In this document: positions 818 to 22,700 of the stretch, in pieces
Layout: every line of letters starts with the position of its first letter
Position numbering within the stretch: the first letter of the stretch is position 1
Virus record (IMG/VR): IMGVR_UViG_3300031993_000032
DNA from: a virus
Lineage: Duplodnaviria > Heunggongvirae > Uroviricota > Caudoviricetes
Length of the DNA: 64,000 nt
Reading direction: 5' to 3' (one strand)
Notes under the pieces: generated by a model
Seen by the model: only the letters and a program-made list of their open reading frames with translations
Database searches by the model: none
Told to the model about the DNA's origin: nothing
Made by a program: the position numbers and the translations under genes

Positions 818-852
818 CCCGGCGAGGCAGTCCCGCCGGGTAAGCGTCAGTC
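818..852 (-). promoter_or_regulatory. cassette instance 1 (hairpin CCCGGCG-GGACTGCCT-CGCCGGG plus GACTGA)
   Basis: Read directly from the sequence. One of about 34 copies, listed in findings. Confidence 0.6.
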
Positions 853-1515
853 TTCGACGTGGTGAGTTTCCCAGTATTCTCTGGCGTAGTCGTCAGAAGC
901 GTCACGGTCGAACGGAGAACCGTCGATCGGCGTACCGGAGAAGCCTGTAGAACATTCAGAAATAAATTCTTCTACGTCCTTGGCGCACGTCGTCTGGTAG
1001 AACTCGGCTATCTTGGTTCGACCGACGTATTCGGCGATACGTTCGTTCTTGATAGTGATTTCGCTGTCCCAGATTTCGTCGACAAAATCATCCAGAAGTT
1101 CTGCGCCGTACCACTTGGCGACCATGGCGTCGCAGTCGTCCTGAGCCAGTTGCAGCTCACGCTTTTTCTTGCCGGTATAGAAGTATCCGTCCACCCAGCG
1201 TTCAGCGATAGCCTCGACGATGTCGCAGCGAGCTTCCATTCGTTCTGGATGGTCGTCACGATCGGTTTCGTCGTCGGTTTCCATCAGAGGGCCGAAGTCC
1301 AGATTCTCCTGAAGCATACGGATCATTACCGCTTCCTTCAGGTCGCGTTCCTTCTGGTTTTCTTGGCTGGGATAGACGGCAGTGTCGTCGTCTACAGCCA
1401 GTTCAGGATTGTCGTTCAGAACATCTTCTTCCGTCGCCTCGTAGCCTTGGGCACAGAGAAGGCTGGTCAGATGGTTTTCTTTACAGGACTTGATGAGTTG
1501 TTCTCTTGAAAGCAT
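847..1515 (-). CDS. hypothetical acidic protein
   Basis: ORF track. AAGGAG RBS. Cassette upstream. Confidence 0.6.
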   Translation of the reverse strand: MLSREQLIKSCKENHLTSLLCAQGYEATEEDVLNDNPELAVDDDTAVYPSQENQKERDLKEAVMIRMLQENLDFGPLMETDDETDRDDHPERMEARCDIVEAIAERWVDGYFYTGKKKRELQLAQDDCDAMVAKWYGAELLDDFVDEIWDSEITIKNERIAEYVGRTKIAEFYQTTCAKDVEEFISECSTGFSGTPIDGSPFDRDASDDYAREYWETHHVED

Positions 1516-1582
1516 TTTAAATCTCCTTGGGTTGTATAGGATAAATAACCCGGCGAGGCAGTCCCGCCGGGTAATGACCAGT

Positions 1583-2026
1583 CTATTTAATGGTCAACGT
1601 CTTGATACGGAGCCAGTACTCAGGACCGAATTCATCCATAGAGAAGTATTCCGCACCGTTGTTCAGAAGCTCCTTGGCTTCTTCACGGTCAGGCTCTTCT
1701 TCGTCGACGTGGATGACGTTAATCTCGGAAGCGTATTCGATAGCGGCAATAGCCTTCTTCGCCAGCTCTTCCTGAGCTTTCTTCTGGTCGAAGAACAGTT
1801 GGATAGTCGGGTCGTTGTCCTGATAGTCTTCAGGCTCCGGCGATTCGACGAGAGCGTACACGGCCTTGGGCAGTGCAGCGACGAACTTCTCGGCGAGTTC
1901 CTTGAGGTCGGTAAAGTAGTTCTCGACCTTGTAGGCGTCGTCGAGGTTATTGGTAGAATAGTCAATGGAGTCTTTGCCCTTCTTGACCAGTTCGTTGACC
2001 TGTTTGATGAATTCTTCCGGTTTCAT
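1583..2026 (-). CDS. hypothetical acidic protein
   Basis: ORF track. AAGGAG RBS. Cassette upstream. Confidence 0.6.
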   Translation of the reverse strand: MKPEEFIKQVNELVKKGKDSIDYSTNNLDDAYKVENYFTDLKELAEKFVAALPKAVYALVESPEPEDYQDNDPTIQLFFDQKKAQEELAKKAIAAIEYASEINVIHVDEEEPDREEAKELLNNGAEYFSMDEFGPEYWLRIKTLTIK

Positions 2027-2063
2027 ATTGAATCTCCTTGGGTTGTGTATAAAGAAAATAAAA

Positions 2064-2096
2064 CACGGTGGCAGTCCCGCAGGGCTGCCGCCAGTG
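2064..2096 (-). promoter_or_regulatory. cassette instance 3 (hairpin GGCAG-T-CCC-GCA-GGG-CTGCC)
   Basis: Read directly from the sequence. Confidence 0.6.
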
Positions 2097-2606
2097 CTAC
2101 ACTTCGTCGATGTCTTCGATAACAGCGTCTACGCCGTCCACATCAGCAGTCTGATATGTTTCGTAGGCTTGTTCTTCGAGCTTTTCACGAGCTTCGTCTT
2201 CGTCGTAAGCTTCGCACTCGACGTAAATGCAGTAGTTGATGCTAGCAGTTGCACTGTACTTCTTGGGCAGCCAGTATTCCTTGAACCACTTCTTGGGGTT
2301 CTTCAGGATGTCGGCAGCCGGTTCATCACATTCAAGGCATTCAGAACCTTTGTCAATGTTAATGCAGTCCACTTTACCTTTCAGAATAGTAATGCACAGG
2401 TCACGACCAGACTTTTTGTGATCGAACAACACATTTTCATAAGTCATATTGTCGATCTTGCGGACTTCGGTTTCCGTGTATGTAAATTCCGTGTCCACGT
2501 CAAATGTTTTCAGCTTGGCTTTAGTAACACACTTGACCAGAAAGTCGTGTGCGGCCTTGAAAGCTGCGTTCTGATTGTCAGTGTATTTGGAAACGAGTGT
2601 ATTCAT
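2097..2606 (-). CDS. hypothetical protein
   Basis: ORF track. CAGGAG RBS. Cassette upstream. Confidence 0.6.
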   Translation of the reverse strand: MNTLVSKYTDNQNAAFKAAHDFLVKCVTKAKLKTFDVDTEFTYTETEVRKIDNMTYENVLFDHKKSGRDLCITILKGKVDCINIDKGSECLECDEPAADILKNPKKWFKEYWLPKKYSATASINYCIYVECEAYDEDEAREKLEEQAYETYQTADVDGVDAVIEDIDEV

Positions 2607-2673
2607 GATTAACTCCTGGGTTTGTATAGGGAAAATAACCCGGCGAGGCAGTCCCGCCGGGCCTGATCCAGTC

Positions 2674-3090
2674 TTACTTCTTCTGGCGCAGCTTCAGCAT
2701 ATCGCCGTCGAACGTGTGGCACGTCCTCGGAATGTCGTACATGACGACGTTGCTCACCTTGTCGCCGTGGATACAGCTGCGAATCATCCACCACTTGCCA
2801 CAGTCAGCGCAGCTGCCCTCGCTGACGATGTACGGATTGAGGCCGATGTGCAGCTCTCCGTTATAGCCACCGTACTCGACCTTGTCGTTCCAGTCGATCG
2901 AGTTGGGCTTGCCGCCGCAGAACGGACATACCAGACCGTCATCGTGCTGCTTCACGGCGATCTGGCAGATCCAGACATCCTCGCCGCAGCTGATCGCCTG
3001 TTCAGTAATCATCTTGCGCTTGCCGTAGAACTTGTTGCGGTAGGTTCCCCAACTCTTGTTGATTTCTTGCGATGTCTTGATAATTCCCAT
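2674..3090 (-). CDS. Cys-rich putative zinc-ribbon protein (CPFCGG...CADCG)
   Basis: ORF 2674..3348 trimmed to Met87, which follows a CCAAGGAG RBS. The cassette lies inside the discarded 5' extension. Confidence 0.55.
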   Translation of the reverse strand: MGIIKTSQEINKSWGTYRNKFYGKRKMITEQAISCGEDVWICQIAVKQHDDGLVCPFCGGKPNSIDWNDKVEYGGYNGELHIGLNPYIVSEGSCADCGKWWMIRSCIHGDKVSNVVMYDIPRTCHTFDGDMLKLRQKK

Positions 3091-3156
3091 ATGAACTCCT
3101 TGGTTTATTGTGTGTAACGGAAATAACCCGGCAGGGCAGTCCCGTGCCGGGTCGAT

Positions 3157-3335
3157 CAGTCCCACGAGATAACCTTTCCGTCGTAGCGAAAGCCGTTGCC
3201 TTGGGAGGCAATGTCCTTCGCCGCTTCGGAATACTTCTCCGGAACCGTAAAAGATTTGATGTGCTTGTAGAACGCCTTTGACACCCACGTGTAGAGGATG
3301 ACCTTCTGGCGTTCGATTTCGTCTTGCTTGCTCAT
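3157..3335 (-). CDS. small 59-aa ORF (MSKQDEIERQK...)
   Basis: Below the ORF-track size cut-off. ATG sits 3 nt after the stop of the upstream gene. Ends in the GACTGA element of the next cassette. Confidence 0.35.
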
Positions 3336-3338
3336 AGG

Positions 3339-3686
3339 CTACCACCATGCCCAGAACGCCGCAGTGTCCCCTTCATGCATCGTGCCCAGAACCTCGCTGG
3401 CATCGTCATAGACTTGCTGCACGTCTCTGAAATACCACTCGTCATAGTCAGTACTGCCAAAGAAGAACCCACTCTGGGTAGGCAGCAGTTCTTCTGCCTT
3501 GTCGTGGTTCTCCAGGACAGTCTTGCAGCGTTCGACGAGGTCGGTCATGTCTTCGACGGACAGATCCACGGACTCGCAGTCTTCGAGTTCGCGATCCAGC
3601 TTCGATTCGACAAACGGAATCAGGAAGTTGACCTTGCGGAAATACTTTTCGCAAGTTTTAGATTTGATAGTGATATCCAGACCCAT
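3339..3686 (-). CDS. hypothetical protein
   Basis: ORF track. AAGGAG RBS. Cassette upstream. Confidence 0.6.
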   Translation of the reverse strand: MGLDITIKSKTCEKYFRKVNFLIPFVESKLDRELEDCESVDLSVEDMTDLVERCKTVLENHDKAEELLPTQSGFFFGSTDYDEWYFRDVQQVYDDASEVLGTMHEGDTAAFWAWW

Positions 3687-3767
3687 GATGATTCTCCTTG
3701 GTTAAGGATTGTATAAAGAAAATAAAATAATGCAGCAGTCCCGCAGGGCTGCCGCCAGTTTTACGAC

Positions 3768-4238
3768 CTAGCCGAACTTGACTACTTGCGACCAGTTGGC
3801 TTCGGATTTGTACTTCTTGACAAACTCCTTGTACTTTGGCGTCCGCTGGTACAGACTGCCGAAGTCGATCGCCCACGCAAAGCCGTCGATACTGTCGTAG
3901 TGGTCTTCTGGGTCGTTGTAGACCAGATAGAGCGACAAGCCGGTGGCTTTCTTGAACTCCTTGTGAATCTTGTTACGCTGCTTGCAGAGCTTCTTGAACA
4001 TCGCTTCGGCTTCTTCGCCGTAGGAGTCGTCGTCGAACAGCCCTTGACCGTTACCGTCACGTGACCAGTCAAGCTCGTCGTTGACAAATTCTTCACGACC
4101 ACAGTCGTCGAGAACGCCGTCGATCTTGAAGAATTCCTTGATAGTGTCGATGTGTTCCTTGGCCAGATCGCCGAGAACCTTGTTTACTGCGTCGTCCGAA
4201 ATTACATAGTGAACTGTTACACATGCGCCCATTGACAT
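3768..4238 (-). CDS. hypothetical acidic protein
   Basis: ORF 3768..4487 trimmed to Met84, which follows an AAGGAG RBS. Confidence 0.55.
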   Translation of the reverse strand: MSMGACVTVHYVISDDAVNKVLGDLAKEHIDTIKEFFKIDGVLDDCGREEFVNDELDWSRDGNGQGLFDDDSYGEEAEAMFKKLCKQRNKIHKEFKKATGLSLYLVYNDPEDHYDSIDGFAWAIDFGSLYQRTPKYKEFVKKYKSEANWSQVVKFG

Positions 4239-4321
4239 AGTTGATCTCCTTGGTTGATTGTTGATGGGTTTGTATGGGTTAAATAAAGGGAAGCAGCAGT
4301 CCCGCAGGGCTGCCGCCAGTA

Positions 4322-4372
4322 TTAGCCGGATACACGCTTCTTGGAAGGCTTCTTGATAATTTTCTTGGGCAT
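4322..4372 (-). CDS. 16-aa basic micropeptide MPKKIIKKPSKKRVSG (paralog family member a)
   Basis: GGAGG RBS. ATG overlaps the upstream stop (TGATG). Two paralogs at 13056 and 19321. Confidence 0.3.
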   Translation of the reverse strand: MPKKIIKKPSKKRVSG

Positions 4373-4572
4373 CAGACGGCCTCCACGTCGGTGATTTCGA
4401 ATGTAGAATCCGGATATTCACAGTACAGATAGTCATGCTGGTCACGGAGAGCAGCGAACAGTGTATCAAAGTCGGCATCGTCAACATCAGACTGCACCGA
4501 AACGGTGCAGTATTCTGTGTCCAGATACTCGCCTTCCTTCGTGATATAGATAGTGAGTTCGAGTTCCTTCAC
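4372..4572 (-). CDS. hypothetical acidic protein (GTG start)
   Basis: ORF track. TAGGAGG RBS 6 nt before GTG. Confidence 0.45.
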   Translation of the reverse strand: MKELELTIYITKEGEYLDTEYCTVSVQSDVDDADFDTLFAALRDQHDYLYCEYPDSTFEITDVEAV

Positions 4573-4581
4573 GGCAGCCTC

Positions 4582-4920
4582 CTACGGAACGATGAACCAA
4601 GTCAGCTGGACTGCCGATTCTTGGACGTAAATTTCTGCAACTGGTTCCGTGCTGTTCGGCTCGGTGGCTGTCTTGATGTAGTAGAAGTCGGTATCGTCTT
4701 CGCAAACATTGTCGAGTACATCATTATTGTCAACACTGCGATACTCGCCGTCGGCAATCGGGTCAAATTCGACATCCAGTTCCTTGAGATTCTTCGACAC
4801 GAGCAGCTTAATTGCCTTGTTCGCTTCGTCGATGTAGTCTACGGTAATGACTTTTACGTTCTGGGGAACCACGCTAACGAAGCCGTTGTTTTCGCCTTGC
4901 ATAATCTGAACTACGTTCAT
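4582..4920 (-). CDS. hypothetical protein
   Basis: ORF track. AAGGAG RBS. Cassette upstream. Confidence 0.6.
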   Translation of the reverse strand: MNVVQIMQGENNGFVSVVPQNVKVITVDYIDEANKAIKLLVSKNLKELDVEFDPIADGEYRSVDNNDVLDNVCEDDTDFYYIKTATEPNSTEPVAEIYVQESAVQLTWFIVP

Positions 4921-4992
4921 ATGAACTCCTTGGTTGTTGGTTGTATAAAGAAAATAAAATGGATAGGCAGTCCCGGAGGAGCTGCCCCAGTC

Positions 4993-5562
4993 CTAAACGA
5001 CCATCAGCGGATAGTCCTCGTGACGGCGAGGCGCAAATATCCAGCTGGACAAGCGCATGTACGGCCAGCTTACCCCTTGCGGCGTGCAGTAGACCTTGCC
5101 ACGCTTTACAGACTTCACGTCGAACGTGTCGCCAGCTTTGAACTTGGTTCCGTTGTTCAGCTCGAAATCACGCTTGGCTGCGATAACCGACCCTGGCTGG
5201 ATGGCCTTCAGCTCCTTGGACGCACGCTCTGCCCGCTCGCAGCTCAACAGCCAGTCGGCCTCGTACTTCTCGGCGATGATACCACGCTTGTCGAGCTCAC
5301 GGCGAAGCCAGCGAGCCGCAGCGAGGTTGATATCATAGGGACCCGACGACACTTCGATGTCCTTGTAGCCGTACTCACGCTTGCCGAACTTGTGTACCAT
5401 CACGTCCACGAGGAACGGACGGTCATTGGCAACGTCCAGACACTTAAGGAAGCTGCCGCACCAGCCGAACGTCTTAACTCGACCAGAACGAGCCATGTCT
5501 TCTTCATATTCACGGCGAAGCACCGTAGGCGTAGTCCATTTCCAGCAACTTGTCCATCCCAT
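4993..5562 (-). CDS. hypothetical protein
   Basis: ORF track. AAGGAG RBS. Cassette upstream. Confidence 0.6.
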   Translation of the reverse strand: MGWTSCWKWTTPTVLRREYEEDMARSGRVKTFGWCGSFLKCLDVANDRPFLVDVMVHKFGKREYGYKDIEVSSGPYDINLAAARWLRRELDKRGIIAEKYEADWLLSCERAERASKELKAIQPGSVIAAKRDFELNNGTKFKAGDTFDVKSVKRGKVYCTPQGVSWPYMRLSSWIFAPRRHEDYPLMVV

Positions 5563-5600
5563 ATCAAACTCCTTGGTTGAGGTTCACTAATAAAATATAA

Positions 5601-5634
5601 CTTTCTGGCAGTCCCGTGTCAATACCACCAGTCA
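5601..5634 (-). promoter_or_regulatory. cassette instance 9 (loop variant TCCCGTGTCAATAC)
   Basis: Read directly from the sequence. The same loop variant recurs at 8569, 10909 and 14213 with compensating stems. Confidence 0.55.
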
Positions 5635-5649
5635 ACTAGTTATATTTTA

Positions 5650-5677
5650 AACGAAAAAAGGGTCTTACAACCCTTTG
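5650..5677 (-). terminator. intrinsic terminator (AAAGGGTCTTACAACCCTTT + T-run on the minus strand)
   Basis: Read directly from the sequence. Confidence 0.6.
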
Positions 5678-6411: not shown

Positions 6412-6574
6412 AAATAACTCCTTGGTTGTATAAGGGCAATAACCCGGCGAGACAGTCCCGCCAGGTATCTGCCAGTCGTCCGATCCGGACAGCAAGCAGA
6501 AAAAGGCGGCCAGGGTCTCCCCCAGCCGCCTCACCTCAACAACAAATTTTAATCGTCCCAGTCAAGCTGTGCAA

Positions 6575-6928: not shown

Positions 6929-7054
6929 CGGTCTGGGTAGGACTCGAACCTACATCCTGCGCCCGTATGGAGCCGTTGTCGCTGCTCTTTACTAGTGTAC
7001 AGCTAGTCTATTTTCCCGCCGAAGCCGTCGCCTCGACTTTTAAGCTACCAGACC
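6929..7054 (-). ncRNA. tRNA-like element, 126 nt: canonical T-arm (GTAGG-TTCGAGT-CCTAC), 7-bp acceptor stem (GGTCTGG/CCAGACC), plausible D-arm, no encoded CCA; anticodon region atypical and over-long
   Basis: Read by eye on the minus strand. Perfect 7-bp acceptor complement 126 nt apart. T-loop matches T-Psi-C-R-A. Confidence 0.4.
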
Positions 7055-7102
7055 AATGGTGTAATGATCCGGCGGAGCAGTCCCGCCGGACCGGGTTCAG
7101 TG

Positions 7103-7333: not shown

Positions 7334-7419
7334 GGTTGTTTCTCCTTGTGGTTGATTGTTTGCATAAATGGAATAGGAAGAAGGGGCAGTCCCGTAGGAC
7401 TGCCCCCAGTCCACCTCAA

Positions 7420-7794: not shown

Positions 7795-7934
7795 TGTTTA
7801 ACTCCTTGGTTGAGGTTTGTATAAATGTAATAGGACGGTCCGGCAGCCCCGCGGCCGCTAGGCCAGTGTCTCAAGGAACTCGTCCATGTACTCCAGGTCA
7901 GTCTCGTTAGTGCAGCCGAAGCACAAATTATTTT

Positions 7935-8519: not shown

Positions 8520-8674
8520 TGTTGAACTCCTTGATTGAGGTTTGTATAAATATAATATAACTAAATGACAGTCCCGTGTCAATACTGTCAGTCAAAAAGT
8601 TATATTTTTGGATCGACCGCCGGTTCGGTAGATCCGAGAACAAATAAAAAAGTGCCCCATCTGGGGCACCGTTT

Positions 8675-9136: not shown

Positions 9137-9198
9137 AAGTAATCTCCTTGGCTGAGGTTTGTATAAAGGTAATAGTTCGGCGAGGCAGTCCCGCCGAG

Positions 9199-9558
9199 CT
9201 ACGACCAGTAGTGGAACATGCTGGTGTTTCCGTCTAGGATAGCCACGAAATGGTCTGCGGAACTGGCCGACGGCGATTCGGCGAGCTTGCCAGCGGCAAA
9301 GTCCTTCAATACATCATAGGCAAGCTCCTCGTCTGCGCTCTTGCCGTCATCGAGCAAGGCGATAGAGTTCCGTGTTCGGTCGAAAGCGATAGTAAAGTCC
9401 ACGACACGACCATCGGCTGTCGTTACCTTGACAAAGTCTTGAGAACCTTCCATTCCGTCGAGCACATCATCGACAGACAGCCCCTCGAACATCTCGCCGA
9501 GCTCATCGTAGTCAGTGCCGAACACCTTAAATACAAGTTGATTGTTTGGCGTCATCAT
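9199..9558 (-). CDS. hypothetical protein (119 aa)
   Basis: ORF 9199..9660 trimmed to the ATGATG that follows an AAGGAG RBS. Confidence 0.5.
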   Translation of the reverse strand: MMTPNNQLVFKVFGTDYDELGEMFEGLSVDDVLDGMEGSQDFVKVTTADGRVVDFTIAFDRTRNSIALLDDGKSADEELAYDVLKDFAAGKLAESPSASSADHFVAILDGNTSMFHYWS

Positions 9559-9631
9559 AAGAAACTCCTTGGTTGAGGTTTGTATAAAGGGAATAAGACG
9601 GCGAGGCAGTCCCGCCGACCGTTCGCCAGTC

Positions 9632-9970: not shown

Positions 9971-10037
9971 AAGTAATCTCCTTGGTTGTATAAAGGGAAT
10001 AAGACGGCGAGGCAGTCCCGCCGTCGATGTTTCAGCC

Positions 10038-10442: not shown

Positions 10443-10473
10443 ATTGAATCTCCTTGGTTGTATAGAGTAGATA

Positions 10474-10866
10474 CTACTTCGAGGCAGTCCCGTGGGCTGC
10501 CTTCCAGTCGGTGATTGTAATCGTGAAGCACACACAAGTGGTCTTGGCTTCAGCTTCGGTGTCGGCGAGCATGAACAGGACGGAAGGGTCATGACCGCAC
10601 GCCACGATTGCGTTGGGGTAGGCGTTCGCGATGTTCTCACGCATGGACTTCAGACAAGCGATGATGTTCTCTGCGAGCACGGAATCAGAGCCGCACTTGC
10701 TAGGGTCTTCTGCGTTCACTGCGTCGGCAATGTCCTGGGCACGCTTGTGCGTTTTGTCGTTGTTCAAAAGAAATTCAGCGGTGTGCGACTGCATATAGTC
10801 ACGCACCCTATTGTATGCGGTTTGGTTAAGTTCCTTGACGAGCTTGCTATCAAAAGGCCAGTTCAT
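10474..10866 (-). CDS. hypothetical protein whose 3' end reads through the cassette hairpin
   Basis: ORF track. AAGGAG RBS. Confidence 0.55.
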   Translation of the reverse strand: MNWPFDSKLVKELNQTAYNRVRDYMQSHTAEFLLNNDKTHKRAQDIADAVNAEDPSKCGSDSVLAENIIACLKSMRENIANAYPNAIVACGHDPSVLFMLADTEAEAKTTCVCFTITITDWKAAHGTASK

Positions 10867-10977
10867 AATAACTCCTTGGTTAAGTCAGAAATAAAATATA
10901 ACATAAAGGCAGTCTCGTGTCAATACTGCCAGTCCGAGCACTATATTTTAAACAAAAAAGGGGCTTTCGCCCCTGGA

Positions 10978-11370: not shown

Positions 11371-11437
11371 ATCGGTACTCCGTGTTGAGGTTTGTATAAA
11401 GGGAATAGGACGACGGTGCAGTCCCGTCGACTGGTTA

Positions 11438-11740
11438 TCAGTCGATAATCCGTACTCGGTTCTCTACACGCCAAGTAATCGTATTCGGCTTGTCTGCTGT
11501 TTCCCAAAAGGTAAACGACGCAGTCGGATTATCGTTCAGTTCAAAGCTCATTTTGCATGTTTGCTTGCTGTCTACATGACGTTGAGTAAGGTCTTTAATG
11601 TCGTCCCAAATCTGCTGGATAATAGCATTTTTATCCTCACTGTAATAAGTCGGCCCCCATTGGGCGGCTGATACATTACCATACTGAATCTGACGGACAA
11701 GTTCAAATGCTGGTACGAGTGTATGATCTTTGTTTGCCAT
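11438..11740 (-). CDS. hypothetical protein
   Basis: ORF track. AAGGAG RBS. Confidence 0.55.
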   Translation of the reverse strand: MANKDHTLVPAFELVRQIQYGNVSAAQWGPTYYSEDKNAIIQQIWDDIKDLTQRHVDSKQTCKMSFELNDNPTASFTFWETADKPNTITWRVENRVRIID

Positions 11741-11862
11741 AATGAATCTCCTTGGTTGAGGTTTGTATAATCATAATGCACCGTCGAGGCAGTCCCGCAG
11801 AGAGACTGCCAGTATCCGGATCGCTGCATAAAGGAAACAGTCCCCATAAGGGGACCTGGTTC

Positions 11863-12192: not shown

Positions 12193-12358
12193 AGTAGGCT
12201 CCTTGTTAGTGGTTGAGGTTTGTATAGTCATAATACACCGTCGAGGCAGTCCCGCACAGTTACTGCCAGTCTTCCGGATCGAATCCGCTGGAAAAAGTGA
12301 CGCCGCCAGTCACCCAGCGGCGTCGCCCAACACGCCAGCCCACCACGGCTGGCACCAC

Positions 12359-12700
12359 CTACATCCACTCTTCGCCGTGAACCTTGCGGAGCTCGCCCAG
12401 CGTGCTCTTGAGAGGCTTCACGCTGATGTCACGCTCGATGGTCAACCCCAGTGGCAGCTTGAGGCTCTCCAGCTCGTCGATGCTGATAGAGCCCAGTTCC
12501 AGACCGTAGCCCAACGTGGCTGCACCGAACACGATGCGACCGTCGTCGTAGCTGTCATCTTCCAGCACGTACCACGTACCAGCACCAGTAGGGTTAAAGA
12601 AGCGTGCGATAACCTTCTTGTCGTCCAGTTCCACGTTCTCGGTAGAGCCATACGGCGTATTCTTGATTGCTTCTTCGATTTCCTTGGTAATCAGCTTCAT
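12359..12700 (-). CDS. hypothetical protein
   Basis: ORF track. AAGGAG RBS. Double-hairpin terminator downstream at 12285-12350. Confidence 0.6.
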   Translation of the reverse strand: MKLITKEIEEAIKNTPYGSTENVELDDKKVIARFFNPTGAGTWYVLEDDSYDDGRIVFGAATLGYGLELGSISIDELESLKLPLGLTIERDISVKPLKSTLGELRKVHGEEWM

Positions 12701-12784
12701 AAGAGCTCCTTGGTTGAGGTTTGTATAGTCAGAATACTCCGGCGAGGCAGTCCCGTCGGAGTCCAGCCAGTCGCTGTCGGCAGA

Positions 12785-13840: not shown

Positions 13841-13911
13841 AGGTAACTCCTTGTTGCGGTTTGTATAATGGGAATAGATCGGCGAGGCAGTCCCGCCGAT
13901 CGATATCCAGT

Positions 13912-14166
13912 CTATACCAAGATTTCTATGTCGTCGGCGTCAGACTCTTTGTAAGCGTCCTTTACCGTCTGTGGGATATTGTCGTCGTCGGTGAGCCAGC
14001 AGCCAGGCAAATAAGAGTCGCCGCCACCTAACGCAATATCGCCACGGTTTATCTTGGTCTTTATCGGCGAGCTGTCGCCGTTGACGACCATCAAAAGTTC
14101 CTTTTCCGTGAGTTCCACGGTGGCGCTCAATCTGAACGTGATTGCATATTTTTTCTTGCGAGCCAT
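13912..14166 (-). CDS. hypothetical protein
   Basis: ORF track. AAGGAG RBS. Confidence 0.55.
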   Translation of the reverse strand: MARKKKYAITFRLSATVELTEKELLMVVNGDSSPIKTKINRGDIALGGGDSYLPGCWLTDDDNIPQTVKDAYKESDADDIEILV

Positions 14167-14283
14167 AAGTAATTCTCCTTGGTTTGTTCAAAGATAAAAT
14201 ATAACTAAATAACAGTCCCGTGTCAATACTGTCAGTCGATTTAGTTAATTTATAAACACGAAAAGGGGTTTGCGCCCCTAATT

Positions 14284-14730: not shown

Positions 14731-14800
14731 ATTAACTCCTTAGTTGATTGTTGTTGGGGTTTGTATAGAAGGAATAGGACTGCTGGGCAGTCCCGTCCCT

Positions 14801-15244
14801 TTATTCCCAGTCGCCCAGCTTCTTTGCGAGCTGTCTGACCTTACCAATATCTCGGTCAATTTCAAAGGGGAACATCTGCGTATCTCTGTGCTCCCAGTCC
14901 CTCGGATAGCGTCGCAAGAATTCCCACATTTGTGCCACGTACTTGCCATACGGCTGTTCAATGCCCTTGATGCATTCTTCCATCGTGACTTTAAACGAAT
15001 CCAGCGGAAGCCTCTTGAGCGTGCGGAGCATAGCACCGCACTCCACAAAGAAGTCCAGCACCTTGTTCGCCTTGACCTTGTCGGCTTTGCCGTATGTACA
15101 ACAGTAATTATCTCGCATGCGGTTGCGTGTTGCGTTCACGTTCCATTCGTTTTGAAAAATCTTGTGCTCACGCTTGAAAATCTCATTCGAGTGGAATTCT
15201 TCACGGTGCTGCGGTATGTTGATGGTTTGTGTTACGAAAAACAT
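14801..15244 (-). CDS. hypothetical protein
   Basis: ORF track. AAGGAG RBS. Confidence 0.6.
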   Translation of the reverse strand: MFFVTQTINIPQHREEFHSNEIFKREHKIFQNEWNVNATRNRMRDNYCCTYGKADKVKANKVLDFFVECGAMLRTLKRLPLDSFKVTMEECIKGIEQPYGKYVAQMWEFLRRYPRDWEHRDTQMFPFEIDRDIGKVRQLAKKLGDWE

Positions 15245-15370
15245 GGTTAACTCCTTGTTGAGGTTACATAAAAATAATAAGACGCCGGAGCAGTCCCGCT
15301 GTCCAGTAGCCAGTCCGGCATGTCTGTGTAAAAGGAAATAGGGGACGGACGGGCGTCCGCCCCCAAGGAG

Positions 15371-15616: not shown

Positions 15617-15683
15617 ATTCTAGCTCCTTGTTTGTATAGAATAAATATAACATACTGGCAGTCCCGTGAGGGAACAGCCAGTC

Positions 15684-16395: not shown

Positions 16396-16520
16396 AGTAG
16401 CTCCTTGTTAGGTTTGTTTCTGTTACATAATCATAATACTCTGGATAGGCAGTCCCGTCACGATGCTGCCAGTCGCTACATATATGATCGATCGATACAG
16501 CCGGTTTGTAAAACGACAAA

Positions 16521-17139: not shown

Positions 17140-17288
17140 AGGTCATTCTCCTTGTGAGTGGTGGTGTTACATAGATACAATACCTGTCGAGGACAGTCCC
17201 GTCATGAGGCTGCCAGTCTTGGATATATTATCGCATAATCCTGGGAATTTGTCAATAGGAACATAAAAAAAGGGGCTTTCGCCCCAGT

Positions 17289-17594: not shown

Positions 17595-17603
17595 AATTTT
17601 CTC

Positions 17604-17819: not shown

Positions 17820-18107
17820 TTACACGCTCTTCTTGAAGTCGGCGGCGATAGCGTCGCACATTGCGTCAAATTCAGCCTTGACTTCGTCGGCGTTCATCTC
17901 GTTCTTGGGAGCGAAGCCTGGAGTCGGCGAGCGGCTGTCAATGTTCAGCGTGTGTTCGCCAGCGACGAGCGACTTGAACTGTCCGTTGACGGAACTCACG
18001 GTAGTGTCAACGCCTACCATAAATTTGCACTGCTTGTTGGTGTCGCTGTTGAGCACGCAGATAGCGTACATATTGGCACGGAACGGCATGACTTGAATCT
18101 GGTACAT
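17820..18107 (-). CDS. hypothetical protein
   Basis: ORF track. AAGGAG RBS. Confidence 0.5.
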   Translation of the reverse strand: MYQIQVMPFRANMYAICVLNSDTNKQCKFMVGVDTTVSSVNGQFKSLVAGEHTLNIDSRSPTPGFAPKNEMNADEVKAEFDAMCDAIAADFKKSV

Positions 18108-18189
18108 TGGATAACTCCTTTTTTAATTTTGTTTGTTTGTATAGGATAAATAGGGGAACGGTGCAGTCCCGTTCCCCTTGGGTCAGTCG

Positions 18190-18525
18190 TTAGGCAATTG
18201 CCGCCTGGTATTTTTCCAACACGACATTTTCAATGTGTTCACGGAGCGCTCTCGTCGTAGGGTTCACGACGGTTCTGAACTCTTCGCCCTTATAGAAGGG
18301 GTCTACTGGGTAGCCGACAAATAATCCGTTCTCTCCGTCCATGATACGGAGCCCACGGATTACAAGCGAGTCATTCAGAACAACTTGTGCGACACCCTTG
18401 ATGTGTCCTAGGGTTGCCCCATCGCTGAACGGAAAAACTTGTACCGCAGTTACCACCATATCATAATGGGGCTTTTCAGATTCTTTTACTTCGTCCATAG
18501 TAGGAACTTTCTTTTTCGTAACCAT
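18190..18525 (-). CDS. spoVG: SpoVG-family protein
   Basis: Recognised the SpoVG signature by eye (VQVFPFSDGATLGHIKGVAQVVLNDSLVIRGLRIMDGENGLFVGYP). AGGAGA RBS. Confidence 0.65.
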   Translation of the reverse strand: MVTKKKVPTMDEVKESEKPHYDMVVTAVQVFPFSDGATLGHIKGVAQVVLNDSLVIRGLRIMDGENGLFVGYPVDPFYKGEEFRTVVNPTTRALREHIENVVLEKYQAAIA

Positions 18526-18658
18526 ATCGCTATCTCCTGGTTGATTGTTTCATATATAATAAATATCCTGGCAAGGCACGCCCGTCCGCACACTGTCAGT
18601 CCCTGGTGCCTGGAAAAGAAAATAAAAAGGTCTAGGGAATAATCCCTAGACCTTGCTC

Positions 18659-19147
18659 TTAAAAGAACCGCAATACGATTTCTCCGTTCGGCTTTCTGAC
18701 GATTTCGCCTATGACCTTTTCCTTCGGCTCGGTCTTGGGTGGAACCTTGACCGCAGTCGGCTTGACAGTCTGCACCGCTACGATGGGTGGGTCGCTCTCC
18801 GGTACGTGGTGCGGTGCGGAGCCACCACCGAAGCCCAACCCAGCCACGTAGACCATACCGCTGTGGGTCTGTCTGCGGTCATCGTCTGCGAGGACGATGG
18901 GCTTGGGGCGTCCGTTGGAGCCCCTCACGATGACCACGTCCGTGGGGTTCGGATGAGCCGTAGCCTGGATGAACTCGCCCATATCGGCATCGTCCATCTG
19001 CACGAGCACCTTGATGAGTGCTTCGTCAGTCGGATTCAGTGCCGTTGTCGGCTTGGGGAAGGTTGGCTTGTTGTACTTGCGGTTGCGTGTGTATCGCTTC
19101 TTGCCCTTGCTATAAGAGCCTTTAGGTGTTCCGAATCCCATAGTCAT
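18659..19147 (-). CDS. hypothetical protein, basic N-terminus, Pro-rich
   Basis: ORF track. AAGGAG RBS. The start is probably Met3. Confidence 0.5.
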   Translation of the reverse strand: MTMGFGTPKGSYSKGKKRYTRNRKYNKPTFPKPTTALNPTDEALIKVLVQMDDADMGEFIQATAHPNPTDVVIVRGSNGRPKPIVLADDDRRQTHSGMVYVAGLGFGGGSAPHHVPESDPPIVAVQTVKPTAVKVPPKTEPKEKVIGEIVRKPNGEIVLRFF

Positions 19148-19320
19148 CTCCTTGGTAATGGTTCAACTTCGTTACATAGACAGAATACACCTGGAGTGCA
19201 GTCCCGTAGCAATCATGCCAGTCGACCGCCCTGGTTCCGGATCACCGCTTCCTGGCGAGCCTTCGCCACCATGTCCCAGTAACTGGGGACAGTTTCAGAA
19301 AAACTATTTGCACTCTCATG

Positions 19321-19377
19321 TTACTTGCTCACTCTTTTGGTCGTTCGTGTGGTTACGATTCGATTTGATTTAGCCAT
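19321..19377 (-). CDS. 18-aa basic micropeptide MAKSNRIVTTRTTKRVSK (paralog c)
   Basis: AAGGAA RBS. Terminator hairpin upstream. Confidence 0.3.
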   Translation of the reverse strand: MAKSNRIVTTRTTKRVSK

Positions 19378-19509
19378 GGATGAATTCCTTTTTATAAAAT
19401 TGTGGGCTACTCGACGGCGTAGCCCATGCCGTTTTTATTTATTGTAGTGTGGCACTACACGCCACAACTACGGCGAATACGAGCGCCATAGCTATGATGT
19501 TGTGCCACT

Positions 19510-19791
19510 TCATTCTTTTAATTCCTTCGCCACGGCTTCAGCTGCTTCGACGGCTTTTTCTTTTGCCTTCTGTGTCACTGCTGCGGCGGCGTCAGAAGCT
19601 TTTTCTTTGGCGGCGTCAGCGGCTTCGGTAGCCTTCGCCTTCGCCGTGTCCGCTGCATTATCCAGCGCCGACTTTACGAAGTCTTTTGTAGCCGTCTTCA
19701 TAGCTTCGCCACTCTGCTTTACTTTTTCGTCGCATGCGGTGACCATAAAGGTGACCAGCACGATACCAGCGATAGATGCAATCTTTTTCAT
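19510..19791 (-). CDS. small lipoprotein (signal peptide + lipobox VTAC), Ala/Lys-rich
   Basis: ORF track. AAGGAAAA RBS. Confidence 0.6.
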   Translation of the reverse strand: MKKIASIAGIVLVTFMVTACDEKVKQSGEAMKTATKDFVKSALDNAADTAKAKATEAADAAKEKASDAAAAVTQKAKEKAVEAAEAVAKELKE

Positions 19792-19858
19792 TTTTATTTT
19801 CCTTTTTGGTTGAGAGTGAAAGGGGAGCGACCACCCAGCCGCTCCCCTAGGTTGATGG

Positions 19859-20023
19859 TTAGTGAATTTTTGACAGCAACGTGTTCACTATCAAAAGATA
19901 TATTACAAACACGCCACAGAAACCGACCACCGTCGGCAACGGCTTCGCACCGCTGAAAACCTTTACCGTGGTCAAGAGTGCCGCTATGGCAATAAGAATA
20001 AGTTTAATGCTGATTCCTTCCAT
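19859..20023 (-). CDS. small 54-aa hydrophobic (TM) peptide
   Basis: AAGAGGA RBS. Not in the ORF track. Confidence 0.35.
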   Translation of the reverse strand: MEGISIKLILIAIAALLTTVKVFSGAKPLPTVVGFCGVFVIYLLIVNTLLSKIH

Positions 20024-20073
20024 AATGTCCTCTTTAGTTAAGGTGAAAAAGTAAAGGGCTTACGCCCTTTACT

Positions 20074-21030
20074 TTATTTTTTGCTAGTGTAGATATAGTT
20101 TGCAGCCTTAATTGCAGCTCGACAAGCTTTTTCTACCATATTCTTATCGCTTCTGAGTGCCCTAGCCCATTCCTTCACGTAGGCTGCGCTCTGTTCGTCG
20201 CACTGTGGAGTATCAAATCCGTTATCGTGCATAATCGCACAAGAGCAAATTTCTGCTATCAATTCCTCGAAAGAATAAGAATTTTTGTCCATACGGTTCG
20301 CCAATTCCCTATTCAGTCGCTTGGAATGTCCAGTGCTATGTGCCAATTCGTGGAATACGTCAGAATAGTAGGCATTAGAATTTTTATAGCTATTCATAGG
20401 CGGTACGTGAATCTTATCCAAACTCGGAGAATATGCTGGAGTAGTATTCACGTGGTCAATGACCATACTCTCACGAGCTTGATAGTCCACAATAATCTTT
20501 TCTGCATCCGCAATCGGATTATTATGGTGTTCCTCGGCCTTTTTCGCAAACTTTAAAGGACAGTCTACCTCTCGGCCTACCTGCCATACAGTAGACGCTT
20601 TCAAGATAGGGAAATGCCCCTTAATAGGTTCACCATTTTCGTCGAGGCGAGGCTTTCCGTCCTCATCCTTCTTTGTGTACTCTACCATACTGTAGAAGTA
20701 CACTCGATGACCCTTGACCACTTTGCCGTTCTCGTCACGCTTGAAAGCTCCCCACACGGAACCATCCTTCACGTTCGTATGGTTGCGTTCGGCTACGCCG
20801 TTCACTGTGACGAACTCGCCTTCGGTGCATCCACCTAAAGCCAGCATCAGCGTGTTAAGGAACGAATATGACTTACCGTCGCTCTTGAGGAATCCGCTTT
20901 CGGTACGGTTCCACTGTTCACGCCACGGAACGCATCCCTTATCCAAACAAGCCAAAAACTTGTCCGTAATGTCCGCCATAATCTCGGCGGATACCTCGCT
21001 TGAGGTCTTTTTTGTTTTCGTGTATGCCAT
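20074..21030 (-). CDS. ardC: ArdC-like antirestriction protein (N-terminal ssDNA-binding domain + C-terminal HExxH zincin)
   Basis: CVPWREQW...SYSFLNTLML in the N-terminal domain. HELAHSTGH...NYI in the C-terminal domain. ACGGAGA RBS. The ORF-track TTG start trimmed to ATG. Confidence 0.7.
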   Translation of the reverse strand: MAYTKTKKTSSEVSAEIMADITDKFLACLDKGCVPWREQWNRTESGFLKSDGKSYSFLNTLMLALGGCTEGEFVTVNGVAERNHTNVKDGSVWGAFKRDENGKVVKGHRVYFYSMVEYTKKDEDGKPRLDENGEPIKGHFPILKASTVWQVGREVDCPLKFAKKAEEHHNNPIADAEKIIVDYQARESMVIDHVNTTPAYSPSLDKIHVPPMNSYKNSNAYYSDVFHELAHSTGHSKRLNRELANRMDKNSYSFEELIAEICSCAIMHDNGFDTPQCDEQSAAYVKEWARALRSDKNMVEKACRAAIKAANYIYTSKK

Positions 21031-21167
21031 AATCAATTCTCCGTTGAGTGGTGTTCCGTAAGCCCCATCGGCTTACATAATCTTAATAATCCCACGAGGC
21101 AGTCCCGTAGGCAGTGTGCCAGTCTGTCGCCGTATACGGCACACAATTGGGGCTTTCGCCCCTTTGT

Positions 21168-21494
21168 CTAAAAGTCTAAGCTCTCTATGAGTCCAAAAAA
21201 TAGCTCATCAATATAGGCCGTCTTATTTTCATTTGGTATATGGTCTAAGTCAAGTGTACGCCGTCCATCGGACGCATATACGTAATTTTCGCCATATTCC
21301 AAGTATATTTTGCGGTTATCCTTGAAATATTCATATGTGCGTGAGCCGTCTTTATGGTACGATATAATGACGGCGTGACGTTCACCAGCTACACAAGAGA
21401 TATTTTCCTCGCCAGCGTATTCTTCGCAAATTGGCAAATCATTTGCCAAAGACATAGCTCCGAGAGTCAAAATTGTTAAAATTTGTTTACGCAT
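21168..21494 (-). CDS. secreted protein (signal peptide)
   Basis: ORF 21168..21506 trimmed to Met5. Confidence 0.5.
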   Translation of the reverse strand: MRKQILTILTLGAMSLANDLPICEEYAGEENISCVAGERHAVIISYHKDGSRTYEYFKDNRKIYLEYGENYVYASDGRRTLDLDHIPNENKTAYIDELFFGLIESLDF

Positions 21495-21702
21495 TGCTTG
21501 CTCCAAGGTTTAAGGTTTAACATAGATTTTTAAAAACATTTGATGCAGTCCCGTATCAACTGTATCAGTCACAGACACACTAAATCAAATAAAAAGGCGG
21601 AGCACCTGGGGTAAGGTGCTCCGCCGTCCCGTCCACCACTACGGAGCATAACTGTTTACCACCTAAGTGATAAAAGGTTATGCCCCCTATTGGGGGCGAA
21701 TT

Positions 21703-22530
21703 TTAATTATTTTCGGCTTCTTGGGCTTCAGCGAGCTTGGCAAGCTTTTCGTAATAATTATCACGAATCTTTGCAAGTTCAGCCAAATCCCAATCTTCGT
21801 CGGTTGTGAACTTAATCGGTTCGCCCTTGATGGTGACCACCGCATTTTCAATTTTTATATTCTGATACGGAGCCGAAGCCATCGTCAGCGTCTTGCCGTC
21901 TGGGCCAAGCTTGTCAGAACCATCTTCGTTTTTCTGAATAATTTCATAGCCGTCTTTGTCGGTTATGGTATAGTCAGTGTTCAGACCGCAAAGCTTGTTA
22001 AAAACTTTTGTGTCCTTGATGACTTGACAAATTTCTTCTTTCTTGACATTCTTGCCGTCAGCCGTCCAAATCGTCTTCGGCGTGCCAGCTCGATATGCCA
22101 CGAAATACATTGTGCTGAGGTCATCTTTCACATAGATAAGTTCGGAGTAGACTGGGAACATACCACGATTCTTGATAGCCTTGGTATACGTCCCTTCTAC
22201 TCCGCCACGCTTCATAATGGCTTCGTTCTTGCGGACATAGTTGAGCTTGGCTCCCAAAGTCACCACATAGTCGCTTGTCTTATGGACGACCTTGAAGGGG
22301 TTAGGCGTGCCCTTGGCGAGCGGAGCGACACCAGCCTTCGCCAAATTGGCGTTGAAAGTGTCAATACGCTTCTGAAGGTCAGAGTCGGTCAACCCTTGTT
22401 CCTTGTCAGCCTTGGAAAGCGACGGCATACGAGCCTTCTGCACACATTCCACATCAGCGTCATAGTGGAAGGACGCAAACGAGTTAGAGAGCTTCTTGAG
22501 AAGCTCAAGGTTCAGTTTCTTGATAGCCAT
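21703..22530 (-). CDS. hypothetical protein (275 aa)
   Basis: ORF 21703..22542 trimmed to Met5 after a TGGAG RBS. Last gene of the cassette-driven array. Confidence 0.55.
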   Translation of the reverse strand: MAIKKLNLELLKKLSNSFASFHYDADVECVQKARMPSLSKADKEQGLTDSDLQKRIDTFNANLAKAGVAPLAKGTPNPFKVVHKTSDYVVTLGAKLNYVRKNEAIMKRGGVEGTYTKAIKNRGMFPVYSELIYVKDDLSTMYFVAYRAGTPKTIWTADGKNVKKEEICQVIKDTKVFNKLCGLNTDYTITDKDGYEIIQKNEDGSDKLGPDGKTLTMASAPYQNIKIENAVVTIKGEPIKFTTDEDWDLAELAKIRDNYYEKLAKLAEAQEAENN

Positions 22531-22700
22531 AATAGACTCCATTGGATAGTGGTGGTGGTGGTGCGGTTATGCCCTAACCGCTAGGTTGTAAGCCCCATTG
22601 GCTTACATAGCTATCATAGGACGGCGAGTCAGTCCCGTGCAAGTTCTGCCAGTCCGAAACGCCGTAAGGGGTTCTGTAGGGGAATAGGTTGCCGAGTGTT

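Follow-up and report, generated by a model that had tools for sequence, protein, structure and literature searches.

The DNA analysed here, a 64,000-nt stretch of the Caudoviricetes record IMGVR_UViG_3300031993_000032 (hereafter the window), is only part of a genome of >400 kb. Between positions 1 and 22660 its minus strand carries an array of ~44 small open reading frames (ORFs), mostly ORFans, together with one tRNA-like gene. An earlier note on this DNA had drawn attention to a rigidly spaced intergenic cassette repeated along the array, and this cassette is the subject of our study. The array extends at least 10 kb past the window's left edge, with 13 further cassettes in the next 10 kb, and the block as a whole measures ~30 kb.

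The plus strand of the whole window holds 34 exact matches to the octamer CAGTCCCG, compared to 1.72 ± 1.46 in shuffled sequences (0 of 100 shuffles reached 34). All but one of these (33/34) fall within 828–22637, and the stray at 50507 is accompanied by none of the other blocks. The octamer starts listed previously were correct apart from two slips (10485 rather than 10483, and 15291 rather than 15290), and the degenerate copies reported at 10909 (CGAGACTG), ~7842 (GCGGGGCTGCC) and ~18568 are all present. All array genes lie on the minus strand and the cassettes are read here in gene sense, with offset 0 at the C of CGGGACTG. A per-position information profile of the 33 copies revealed four sharply bounded blocks with variable sequence between them: GACTGG at −17 to −12, with the ACTG letters kept in 32–33 of 33 copies; (A/G)CGGGACTGCC at −1 to 9, in which the octamer CGGGACTG is present in 33/33; TATT at +19 to +22, kept in 30–33 of 33 and overlooked in the earlier note; and (T)TAT(A/G)(C/T)AA at +27 to +34. 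The rigid spacing first seen by eye was reproduced computationally over the 33 copies, NACTG lying exactly at −17 from the C of CGGGACTG in 29/33 and YAYRYA following the octamer at exactly +20 in 28/33. The upstream ACTG box is exactly 20 bp from the octamer's own box.

Stop codons in the array are most often 67 nt away from the ATG that follows, which means that the cassette makes up the entire intergenic spacer, and the composite module runs for ~85 bp from the stop codon of one gene to the ATG of the next. After the predicted start comes a CA-rich leader with CCAAGGAG, then the ATG. The idea of one cassette in front of every gene stands for ~36 of the 44 ORFs plus the tRNA-like gene; the other small ORFs are translationally coupled or have other signals. 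A search of IMG/VR with the pattern GACTG-N15-CGGGACTG-N11-TATT gave 0 matches, and the same pattern gave 27 single matches in GTDB genomes, compared to ~70 expected by chance (17 fixed bases, 596 Gb), and these are therefore noise. The cassettes of the window are listed below from the upstream box to the start-site block, with the core C (C0), the predicted transcription start site (TSS) and the hairpin in kcal/mol.

801–852 (−), cassette; C0 835; predicted TSS 804; GACTGA / TATTTT / TACACAA; hairpin −18.6
1532–1583 (−), cassette; C0 1566; predicted TSS 1535; GACTGG / TATTTA / TATACAA; hairpin −19.7
2045–2096 (−), cassette; C0 2079; predicted TSS 2048; CACTGG / TATTTT / TATACAC; hairpin −17.1
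2622–2673 (−), cassette; C0 2656; predicted TSS 2625; hairpin −20.3
3110–3161 (−), cassette; C0 3144; predicted TSS 3113; hairpin −21.7
3709–3760 (−), cassette; C0 3743; predicted TSS 3712; hairpin −16.7
4270–4321 (−), cassette; C0 4304; predicted TSS 4273; hairpin −17.4
4941–4992 (−), cassette; C0 4975; predicted TSS 4944; hairpin −15.0
5582–5633 (−), cassette frame with host-type promoter, TTGACA at −6 to −1, N17, TATATT at +17 to +22; start-site block lost; canonical terminator upstream at 5676–5657; hairpin only −9.7
6426–6477 (−), cassette; C0 6460; predicted TSS 6429; strong canonical terminator before it at 6532–6503
7051–7102 (−), cassette without start-site block, preceding the tRNA-like RNA; C0 7085; +31 at 7054
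7360–7411 (−), cassette; C0 7394; predicted TSS 7363; 10-bp GGGGCAGTCC/GGACTGCCCC hairpin, −24.7
7808–7860 (−), degenerate cassette with GCGGGGCTGCC core, TATT and TATACAA intact; precedes gene 7794–7420
8542–8593 (−), cassette frame with host-type TTGACA-N17-TATATT; terminator upstream at 8670–8651
9159–9210 (−), cassette; C0 9193; predicted TSS 9162
9580–9631 (−), cassette; C0 9614; predicted TSS 9583; downstream gene 9558–9199
9986–10037 (−), cassette; C0 10020; predicted TSS 9989
10458–10509 (−), cassette; C0 10492; predicted TSS 10461
10882–10935 (−), degenerate core CGAGACTG in host-type TTGACA-N17-TATATT; terminator upstream at 10974–10959
11392–11443 (−), cassette; C0 11426; predicted TSS 11395
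11763–11814 (−), cassette; C0 11797; predicted TSS 11766
12220–12271 (−), cassette; C0 12254; predicted TSS 12223; canonical terminator upstream at 12324–12299
12721–12772 (−), cassette; C0 12755; predicted TSS 12724
13861–13912 (−), cassette; C0 13895; predicted TSS 13864
14186–14237 (−), cassette frame with host-type promoter; terminator upstream at 14279–14264
14761–14812 (−), cassette; C0 14795; predicted TSS 14764
15264–15315 (−), cassette; C0 15298; predicted TSS 15267; terminator upstream at 15364–15341
15632–15683 (−), cassette; C0 15666; predicted TSS 15635
16423–16474 (−), cassette without −35; core 16457; directly behind strong canonical terminator 16544–16525; a 198-aa gene follows
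17167–17218 (−), cassette; C0 17201; just upstream a separate host-type promoter TTGACA-17-GATAAT at 17255–17227 and a terminator at 17285–17272
18137–18188 (−), cassette; C0 18171; predicted TSS 18140
18545–18600 (−), degenerate cassette; precedes the SpoVG-like gene 18525–18190
19172–19223 (−), cassette; C0 19206; predicted TSS 19175
21073–21124 (−), cassette before the ArdC-like gene; C0 21107; 5′ hairpin GTAAGCC/GGCTTAC from +31 (21076)
21519–21570 (−), atypical copy with both boxes and TTGATA upstream, without TATT; terminator upstream
22603–22654 (−), first cassette of the array; core 22637; no upstream gene; weak hairpin −6.6; 5′ hairpin from +31

Related arrays were fetched using the DUF2958 gene of the window (12359–12700, minus strand, identified by Pfam scan) as an anchor, and their cassettes were compared with those of the window.

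L034, DUF2958 identity 89 %: core CGGGACTG, as in the window
L035, DUF2958 identity 77 %: core CGGGACTG
L036, DUF2958 identity 71 %: core CGGGGCTGACC
L037 (430-kb contig), DUF2958 identity 60 %: core GGGGGATGCTCC, different geometry
L038, DUF2958 identity 56 %: no cassette, plain TTGACA-N17-TATATT promoters
L039 (486-kb contig), DUF2958 identity 50 %: core CCGGGyTTCCCC

Comparison of the lineage cores (CGGGACTG, CGGGGCTGACC, CCGGGYTTCCCC and GGGGGATGCTCC) revealed that the architecture is kept across lineages while the core differs. Uniformity of the core inside each genome, combined with divergence from one genome to another, is the hallmark of a cis element paired with a trans-acting reader. 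The window gene at 9558–9199 is 89 % identical in L036, compared to 67–70 % for its neighbours, and in each genome it is preceded by the core of its own lineage. In the comparison of the window with L034, ~20 of the 36 ends of homology blocks lay within a cassette, and whole genes had been gained, lost or replaced in between. This comparison with relatives supports a further role, in which the cassettes would serve as homologous-recombination points that shuffle single genes. The cassette of L037 is very GC-rich, with CCGGG(G) boxes every ~10–13 bp (CCACCGGGT / GCCGGGGGATGCTCCCGG / ACCGGGGGGATAAT) and an element at the canonical −35 position, and long structured leaders occur in part of its copies (GTAGGGCGGGTGTCCGTCCG); its role is the same in spite of the different geometry. 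A function of the upstream box as a multi-frame stop signal was considered (TGAnTGA in L036) and rejected, as the box of the window is mostly ACTGG.

The earlier note had read TATACAA as the −10-like element of a promoter and GGGACTGCC as its −35-like element. These assignments were not supported, as TATTnn at offset +19 to +24 fits a −10 and TATACAA would then represent a start-site block. Judged from the alignments, the −10 probably lies at offset +19 to +24 (TATTnn, −12 to −7) and +1 at offset +31. In this register CGGGACTG would occupy −31 to −24 and the upstream box −48 to −43, with no conserved −35; GGGACTGCC, at −31 to −22, would be off the canonical −35 position, and the likeness of TATACAA to the CATACA of sigE/sigK-type −10 elements is judged coincidental once the register moves. 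In L035 the hexamer at +19 to +24 is TATTAT, TATAAT or TATACT, with a mean match to TATAAT of 4.5/6, the best of all offsets, and in L037 the A of CATACAA has GATAAT or TATAAT exactly 7 nt ahead of it. In the extension of the array past the window, copies with a decayed TAT at +28 to +30 carry TATAAT or TATACT at +19 to +24 and keep A31. A purine occupies +31 in 32/33, 28/28, 20/21 and 20/20 copies of four lineages, and TAT is found at −12 to −10 in all six lineages once they are anchored on +31. The Shine–Dalgarno (SD) sequence is never nearer than 6–8 nt to +31 and GGAG can begin 8 nt after it (TATACAACCAAGGAG). In at least six window copies GGAG lies 8–9 nt after +31; transcripts begun 7 nt past TATACA would there start within AAGGAG and lose the SD. 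Host-type promoters built into the cassette frame put their −10 at +17 to +22. Two other assignments were tried and rejected. A sigma-54 promoter (−24/−12) does not fit the block spacing. TATA(+1)CAA matches 6/7 positions of HRRASWW, the consensus for capping with nicotinamide adenine dinucleotide (NAD), in which −1 is the strongest determinant (bioRxiv 10.1101/239426), but it carries an anti-consensus pyrimidine at −1.

The copy at 7085, the only one with no ORF behind it, lacks TATACAA and is followed by an RNA gene.

6929–7054 (−), tRNA-like RNA gene, 126 nt; Rfam RF00005, 37.9 bits compared to a gathering score of 29

The first base of this RNA (7054) is exactly +31 of the cassette. ARAGORN called no tRNA at 6929–7054, and an Rfam scan of L034–L039 found no other cassette-driven RNA gene, which makes the tRNA-like case a single instance. 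The RNA has an acceptor stem (GGTCTGG/CCAGACC) and a canonical T-arm; 48 nt are inserted in the D-loop region and 18 nt in the anticodon region. In L034 its slot is occupied by two small ORFs. Hairpins of the form GTAAGCC...GGCTTAC start at +31 in copies 22637 and 21107 and in several relatives, as expected for a stabilizing 5′-terminal stem. Long leaders are found in the first cassettes of each array; they open with GTAAGCC-N5-GGCTTAC and continue with CA-rich repeats (CACCACCACCACC), at 21076–21055 and 22606–22585 (minus strand) in the window, 6611 in L035 and 5799 in L036. Such a leader, with its conserved 5′ hairpin, may stabilize or regulate the transcripts of the first genes, among them that of the ArdC-like gene.

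The compensating stem changes reported earlier were confirmed by an arm-swap test, in which the window hairpins gave −12.5 kcal/mol with native arms and −9.2 kcal/mol with swapped arms (0/5000 permutations). The same test gave −10.1 versus −7.8 kcal/mol in L034, −13.3 versus −10.7 in L036 and −14.0 versus −12.3 in L039, each with 0/5000 permutations. With a fixed 10-bp structure, 60 copies contained 82 double-sided changes compared to 53 ± 6 in shuffled copies (0/500), the result being best at slide 0. No arm covariation was found in L035, where there are many canonical terminators, here defined as a GC-hairpin plus a T-run. The earlier claim that GACTG is always buried in the hairpin holds roughly: of the 33 copies, 12 have it in the loop, 14 in the 3′ arm, 3 in the 5′ arm and 2 in a mixed position, and the remaining 2 form no stable hairpin. 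The 5′ letters CGGG are kept in 33/33 copies, but their pairing partners in only 17–24/33. Because the hairpin register is not unique and CGGG is invariant while its partners vary, the cassette is under two separate constraints: the octamer has to be kept as a linear sequence, and a stable hairpin of some kind has to form around it.

Centred near −25, with the base of its stem 13 nt from the predicted start, the hairpin is GC-rich and its lower stem varies with compensation. It is followed by a T-rich tail, as had been noted (T fraction 0.53, range 42–55 %, compared to a background of 0.22), and the predicted −10 lies within this T-rich stretch. Behind a canonical terminator the internal hairpin is weaker, at −9.3 kcal/mol (n=44) compared to −14.75 kcal/mol elsewhere (n=82; Mann–Whitney p = 5.8e-9), and the direction is the same in all five lineages. 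This complementarity is as a terminator function predicts and indicates that the hairpin is not needed for the function of the boxes. The weak hairpin of the first cassette likewise fits a terminator role, as there is no gene upstream. Covariation, the T-rich tail, the weaker hairpins behind canonical terminators and the cassettes that stand between such a terminator and a gene thus lend support to the proposal that each copy joins the terminator of the upstream gene to the promoter of the next, with the cassette hairpin as the putative terminator.

Several cassettes that lack a −35 sit directly behind strong canonical terminators and ahead of genes (16457, 6460 and 12254), and 13/21 cassettes of L035 are likewise placed behind canonical terminators. 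Genes in this position need a promoter of their own. The array has five near-perfect host-type promoters (5 sites reach 11/12 consensus matches), ~3 kb apart and each behind a canonical terminator. Four of the five are built into a cassette frame with both boxes kept, and the boxes are retained in host-type copies that have no strong hairpin. In the remaining ~30 copies there is no −35, and TATTnn takes the place of the −10. Outside the array, a TTGACA-N14-T(G/A)C-TATATT class occurs 16 times, compared to 2.3 expected, with none in the array.

T(G/A)C-TATAT(T/G) promoters: 23182, 23865, 29725, 34139, 38931, 40664, 40758, 40826, 48471, 50375, 53143, 56171, 59975, 60268, 61496

These sites often have TTGACA exactly 17 bp upstream, and several are only 6–7 nt from an ATG, which implies leaderless mRNAs. 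The distribution suggests that the cassettes would constitute a promoter class distinct from that of the rest of the window.

TATT is separated from the end of the invariant octamer by 11 bp and from that of the 10-mer by 9 bp, and a second identical box lies 20 bp further upstream on the same face of the helix. As the linear spacing is invariant and the structural context varies, the boxes are probably read as DNA rather than as RNA. Three features of the window bear on what might read them.

58152–58892 (−), phage sigma-70-family factor, 246 aa; PF04542 and PF04545 (regions 2 and 4)
57673–58155 (−), 160-aa helical protein coupled to the sigma gene; its start overlaps the sigma stop (ATGA)
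22834–22908 (−), tandem 20-bp units, ~3.8 copies, CTCGTCTGGACTGGTTGGGA in gene sense, with GGACTGG; at the array head, conserved in L035 (4842–5020)

The sigma gene named in the earlier note does encode a sigma-70-family protein with regions 2 and 4. It gives partial matches to RpoS, RpoH and RpoD, and is a divergent group-1/3-like factor whose operon is preceded by a host-type promoter at ~59975. Its region 2 and the region 4.2 helix SHER(V/I)RQ are invariant in ten homologues of 51–88 % identity, among them the one whose contig also carries the L036 array with its different core. The invariant region 2 agrees with the invariant TAT of the −10. The phage sigma is a candidate reader only. The 160-aa protein is kept beside the sigma factor in relatives and diverges about twice as fast (30 % versus 56 % identity in the L036 lineage). 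At its C-terminal end the motif RE(N/D)R(D/E)E.IFDGKRIE.EL does not vary. We speculate that the 160-aa protein is a candidate co-factor. The tandem units are non-coding, lie 200–270 bp upstream of the first cassette and contain nested 9-bp TGGTTGGGA repeats, with GGACTGG at ~20-bp phasing. They could be a cluster of putative binding sites for the box-reading factor.

Taken together, we consider it probable that each copy is a single module comprising a terminator hairpin, an unusual phage-specific promoter, a start site and an SD. At the RNA level, the hairpin and its U-rich tail would halt or attenuate transcription arriving from the upstream gene. At the DNA level, the same stretch would be a −35-less promoter that takes its specificity from two GACTG boxes 20 bp apart on one helix face, read by a phage-encoded factor that co-evolves with them. 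The reader might be a MotA-like activator acting with a sigma factor that recognizes a TATAAT-like −10 or, alternatively, the phage's own sigma, possibly with its 160-aa partner. In the simplest programme, host RNA polymerase would fire the 5–6 host-type copies and the sigma operon as immediate-early promoters, the phage factor would then be made and switch on the ~30 box-dependent cassettes, and the hairpin of each cassette would insulate it against its neighbour. A bolder version, to which we give only tentative credence, is an undescribed transcription system in which a lineage-specific factor reads the paired GACTG boxes (−46 and −26) and recruits polymerase to −35-less promoters with a TATA(+1)CAA start. 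The factor would in that case be the fast-evolving 160-aa protein or another early protein, and one 50-bp sequence would encode 'stop' in RNA and 'start' in DNA. If true, this would amount to >45 single-gene units, each insulated and exchangeable on its own, all governed by a single master switch, with box and factor co-evolving between lineages so that the lineages are mutually orthogonal.

Four other explanations were weighed against the composite module. It is unlikely that the cassette acts in RNA only, on polycistronic transcripts from the 5–6 host-type promoters, as a nut-like antiterminator, an endonuclease site or a stabilizer with a standard translation-initiation region. Host-type promoters preceded by terminators do occur every ~3 kb, the hairpin covaries, the order of box then hairpin resembles boxA/boxB and the leader is highly conserved. 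However, many non-host-type cassettes sit behind strong terminators (13/21 in L035) and their genes would be silent without a promoter, while the lineages share a −10-like hexamer with a purine following it at exactly 7 nt. A core found in loop or stem at fixed spacing is the wrong pattern for a protein that binds a hairpin loop, and the nut-like alternative of the earlier note is disfavoured on this ground. Furthermore, a processive antiterminator needs one site per operon rather than one per gene, and the first cassette has no upstream gene on its strand. Quite improbable, in our view, is the register proposed earlier, a phage-sigma holoenzyme with GGGACTGCC as the −35, TATACAA as a sigE/sigK-like −10 and starts 7–10 nt downstream. 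The rigid 20 nt between octamer and TATACAA does give a spacer of 17–19 bp to CTGCCT/ACTGCC/GACTGC, the window does encode a sigma-70-family protein and TATACA does resemble CATACA. Nevertheless, the start would lie in AAGGAG in at least six copies, copy 7085 lacks TATACAA yet precedes an RNA whose 5′ end is +31, and the supposed −10 would run into the 5′ hairpins. This register would also leave unexplained the invariant TATT and the TATAAT/GATAAT of relatives, including the GATAAT of L037, which is upstream of CATACAA and has an A 7 nt past the hexamer.

A structured-DNA promoter, at which a phage polymerase or factor recognizes an extruded DNA hairpin in the manner of the N4 virion RNA polymerase, is very unlikely, even though the stem covaries, has an invariant apex and keeps a fixed distance (stem base 13 nt) from the predicted start, the genes are early-type and the window encodes several large unannotated proteins. 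GACTG is in the loop in just 12/33 copies, the copies with a separate terminator are precisely those in which the hairpin is weak or missing although the cassette otherwise looks intact, and the arms do not covary in L035 and L037. The canonical −10-like hexamer and the discriminator-length gap point to a sigma-70-type holoenzyme, and no RNA-polymerase-like protein was found in the window (64 kb of the >400-kb genome). Orphans of 839, 622 and 676 aa gave no Pfam, NCBIfam or PDB sequence match, which is uninformative on hidden RNA polymerase subunits. We regard as the most improbable of all a recombination or mobility site (attC-like, or like a promoter-early stem-loop (PeSL) minicircle), in which the boxes would be recombinase sites and the expression signals secondary. 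A one-directional array of small ORFans bounded by repeats would suit such a site, as would gene-sized indels and replacements that end inside cassettes and the one gene moved between lineages. However, no integrase or recombinase was seen beside the array and no integrase among the scanned proteins, a check of the consensus found neither attC-type R/L box symmetry nor a GTTRRRY core, the blocks are placed relative to SD and ATG like expression signals, and the breakpoint pattern is as expected from ordinary homologous recombination between repeats.

Several observations weigh against the composite module itself. Promoter activity, TSS and termination are all deduced from sequence. TATTnn is a weak −10 by sigma-70 standards, as only 16/33 window copies have T at −7 and about half are without it, although the match is better in L035. 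The 5′ end of the tRNA-like RNA at +31 could reflect RNase P processing and a shared cargo boundary rather than a TSS. In L037 the arms do not covary (3360/5000 permutations reach the observed value) and the core lies at −40 to −29, so the geometry is not uniform in the clade. If the phage sigma is the reader, it could read the invariant TAT and perhaps CGGG, but its region 4.2 and region 2 are invariant across differing cores and it is thus unable to explain the lineage-specific part. No Pfam, PHROG or NCBIfam match to MotA or AsiA was found among ~60 scanned window proteins (64 kb of the >400-kb genome). Finally, the enrichment of breakpoints is weak evidence for a role in recombination, because breakpoints are bound to fall in intergenic DNA and intergenic DNA here is cassette.

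The closest known kinds of element are the PeSLs of T4-type phages and the MotA-box middle promoters of T4. PeSLs are composite promoter–terminator modules of T4-like phages that run from stop codon to SD/ATG, occur in tens of copies ahead of ORFans in hyperplastic regions and allow recombination to shuffle single genes (PMC2839356, PMC4122927). Their promoters have the host sigma-70 consensus (−35 and −10) with an AT-rich upstream region, and the position of the stem-loop is variable, with five subclasses (PMC2839356, PMC4122927). Like PeSLs, the cassettes are stop-to-ATG modules repeated before ORFans (33 exact and 3 degenerate copies in the window, and 13 beyond it), with a stem-loop between or overlapping promoter elements as a predicted terminator or attenuator, and with gene indels and replacements between related phages at the modules. 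Unlike PeSLs, ~30/36 copies are without the host sigma-70 consensus and only 5–6 carry a host-type promoter. The cassettes also differ in their rigid four-block layout, paired GACTG boxes, octamer in a hairpin, conserved start-site heptamer and lineage-specific core, and the host and phage groups (uncultured phages >400 kb) are unrelated. In T4 middle promoters a 9–10-bp MotA box replaces the −35, 12 ± 1 bp from a TAnnnT −10 that is required to be excellent, and sigma is appropriated by AsiA/MotA (PMC2988021). The cassettes resemble these in having tens of copies of a phage-specific 8–10-bp box near −30, 9–11 bp from the −10 (a distance that depends on the predicted TSS), and the reader in T4 is made from early host-type promoters. 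They are set apart by a second box 20 bp upstream, a weaker −10, a box within a terminator hairpin and a conserved start.

Promoters read by phage sigma factors (SPO1 gp28 and gp33/34; phiEco32/7-11 gp36) have −35 and −10 elements at canonical spacing (PMC4331800). The window shares with these systems its own sigma-70-family protein and a repeated non-host intergenic promoter motif, but its conserved box is 4–9 bp nearer the −10 and the region 4.2 helix is constant while the box varies. A linear box, a hairpin with a conserved apex and a fixed distance to a functional point are also found in lambda nut sites and N4 early hairpin promoters. In contrast to these, there are ~36 sites in ~6 host-promoter units, the core is in the loop in some copies only, the element leads into a −10-like hexamer and a start, and the hairpin is dispensable where another terminator exists. 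A search of the huge-phage literature found no description of such cassettes.

The array and the rest of the window include the following further genes.

20074–21030 (−), ArdC-like (anti-restriction) gene, Pfam scan
18190–18525 (−), SpoVG-like gene, Pfam scan
63–779 (−), weak, sub-threshold DUF1281_C match, Pfam scan
24474–25790 (+), 43512–45248 (+) and 56160–57482 (−), TnpB/IS605 OrfB (Cas12f-like) genes
37659–38915, CCA-adding enzyme
39791–40573, HD-domain protein
40869–42215, NAPRTase
49469–50359, Thg1

No Pfam match was found for 30 of the 33 array proteins scanned. Elsewhere in the window are three TnpB proteins, the CCA-adding enzyme, Thg1, NAPRTase, Glf, a flotillin-like protein and the sigma-70-family protein. 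The first and third TnpB genes have nearly identical upstream regions and are thus recent copies; one TnpB gene adjoins the sigma operon, and in L038 another interrupts the array region. The CCA-adding enzyme, HD-domain protein, NAPRTase and Thg1 form a tRNA-repair and NAD-salvage set, and L036 (813–2622) additionally encodes a nicotinamide mononucleotide (NMN) transporter and a NadR-like gene. Such gene sets are typical of very large phages. A PHROG 'virion structural protein' match was found in the window (6e-31), no capsid or terminase genes were seen within the 64 kb, and homologues of the sigma factor and DUF2958 sit on metagenomic contigs of up to 430–486 kb. Megablast of 24–40 kb against cultured and GenBank phages gave no match, and the window sigma was at most 27 % identical to anything among them. 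The replicon is most likely an uncultured huge phage. A plasmid leading region with an Frpo-like single-strand promoter was considered and rejected: the array genes resemble leading-region genes, but the palindrome misses the −10 and the start, and the virion-protein PHROG (6e-31) and the tRNA-repair and NAD-salvage genes indicate a phage.

To our knowledge, almost everything learned about huge phages comes from metagenomes, and hardly anything is known of how they programme transcription. The cassette provides a concrete definition of promoter, terminator and start site for the apparent early or anti-defence block of a whole clade, which includes 430–486-kb contigs from several studies. The PeSL-like principle of one insulated module per orphan gene, doubling as a recombination point, has evolved independently outside the T4-like phages, here with a non-host specificity. 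The lineage-specific cores offer a natural series for tracing the cognate factor by co-variation and, if the factor–box pairs are orthogonal, would supply compact, insulated expression parts. Furthermore, the array flags ~45 ORFans, beside ArdC-, DUF2958- and SpoVG-like genes, as candidate host-takeover or anti-defence genes.

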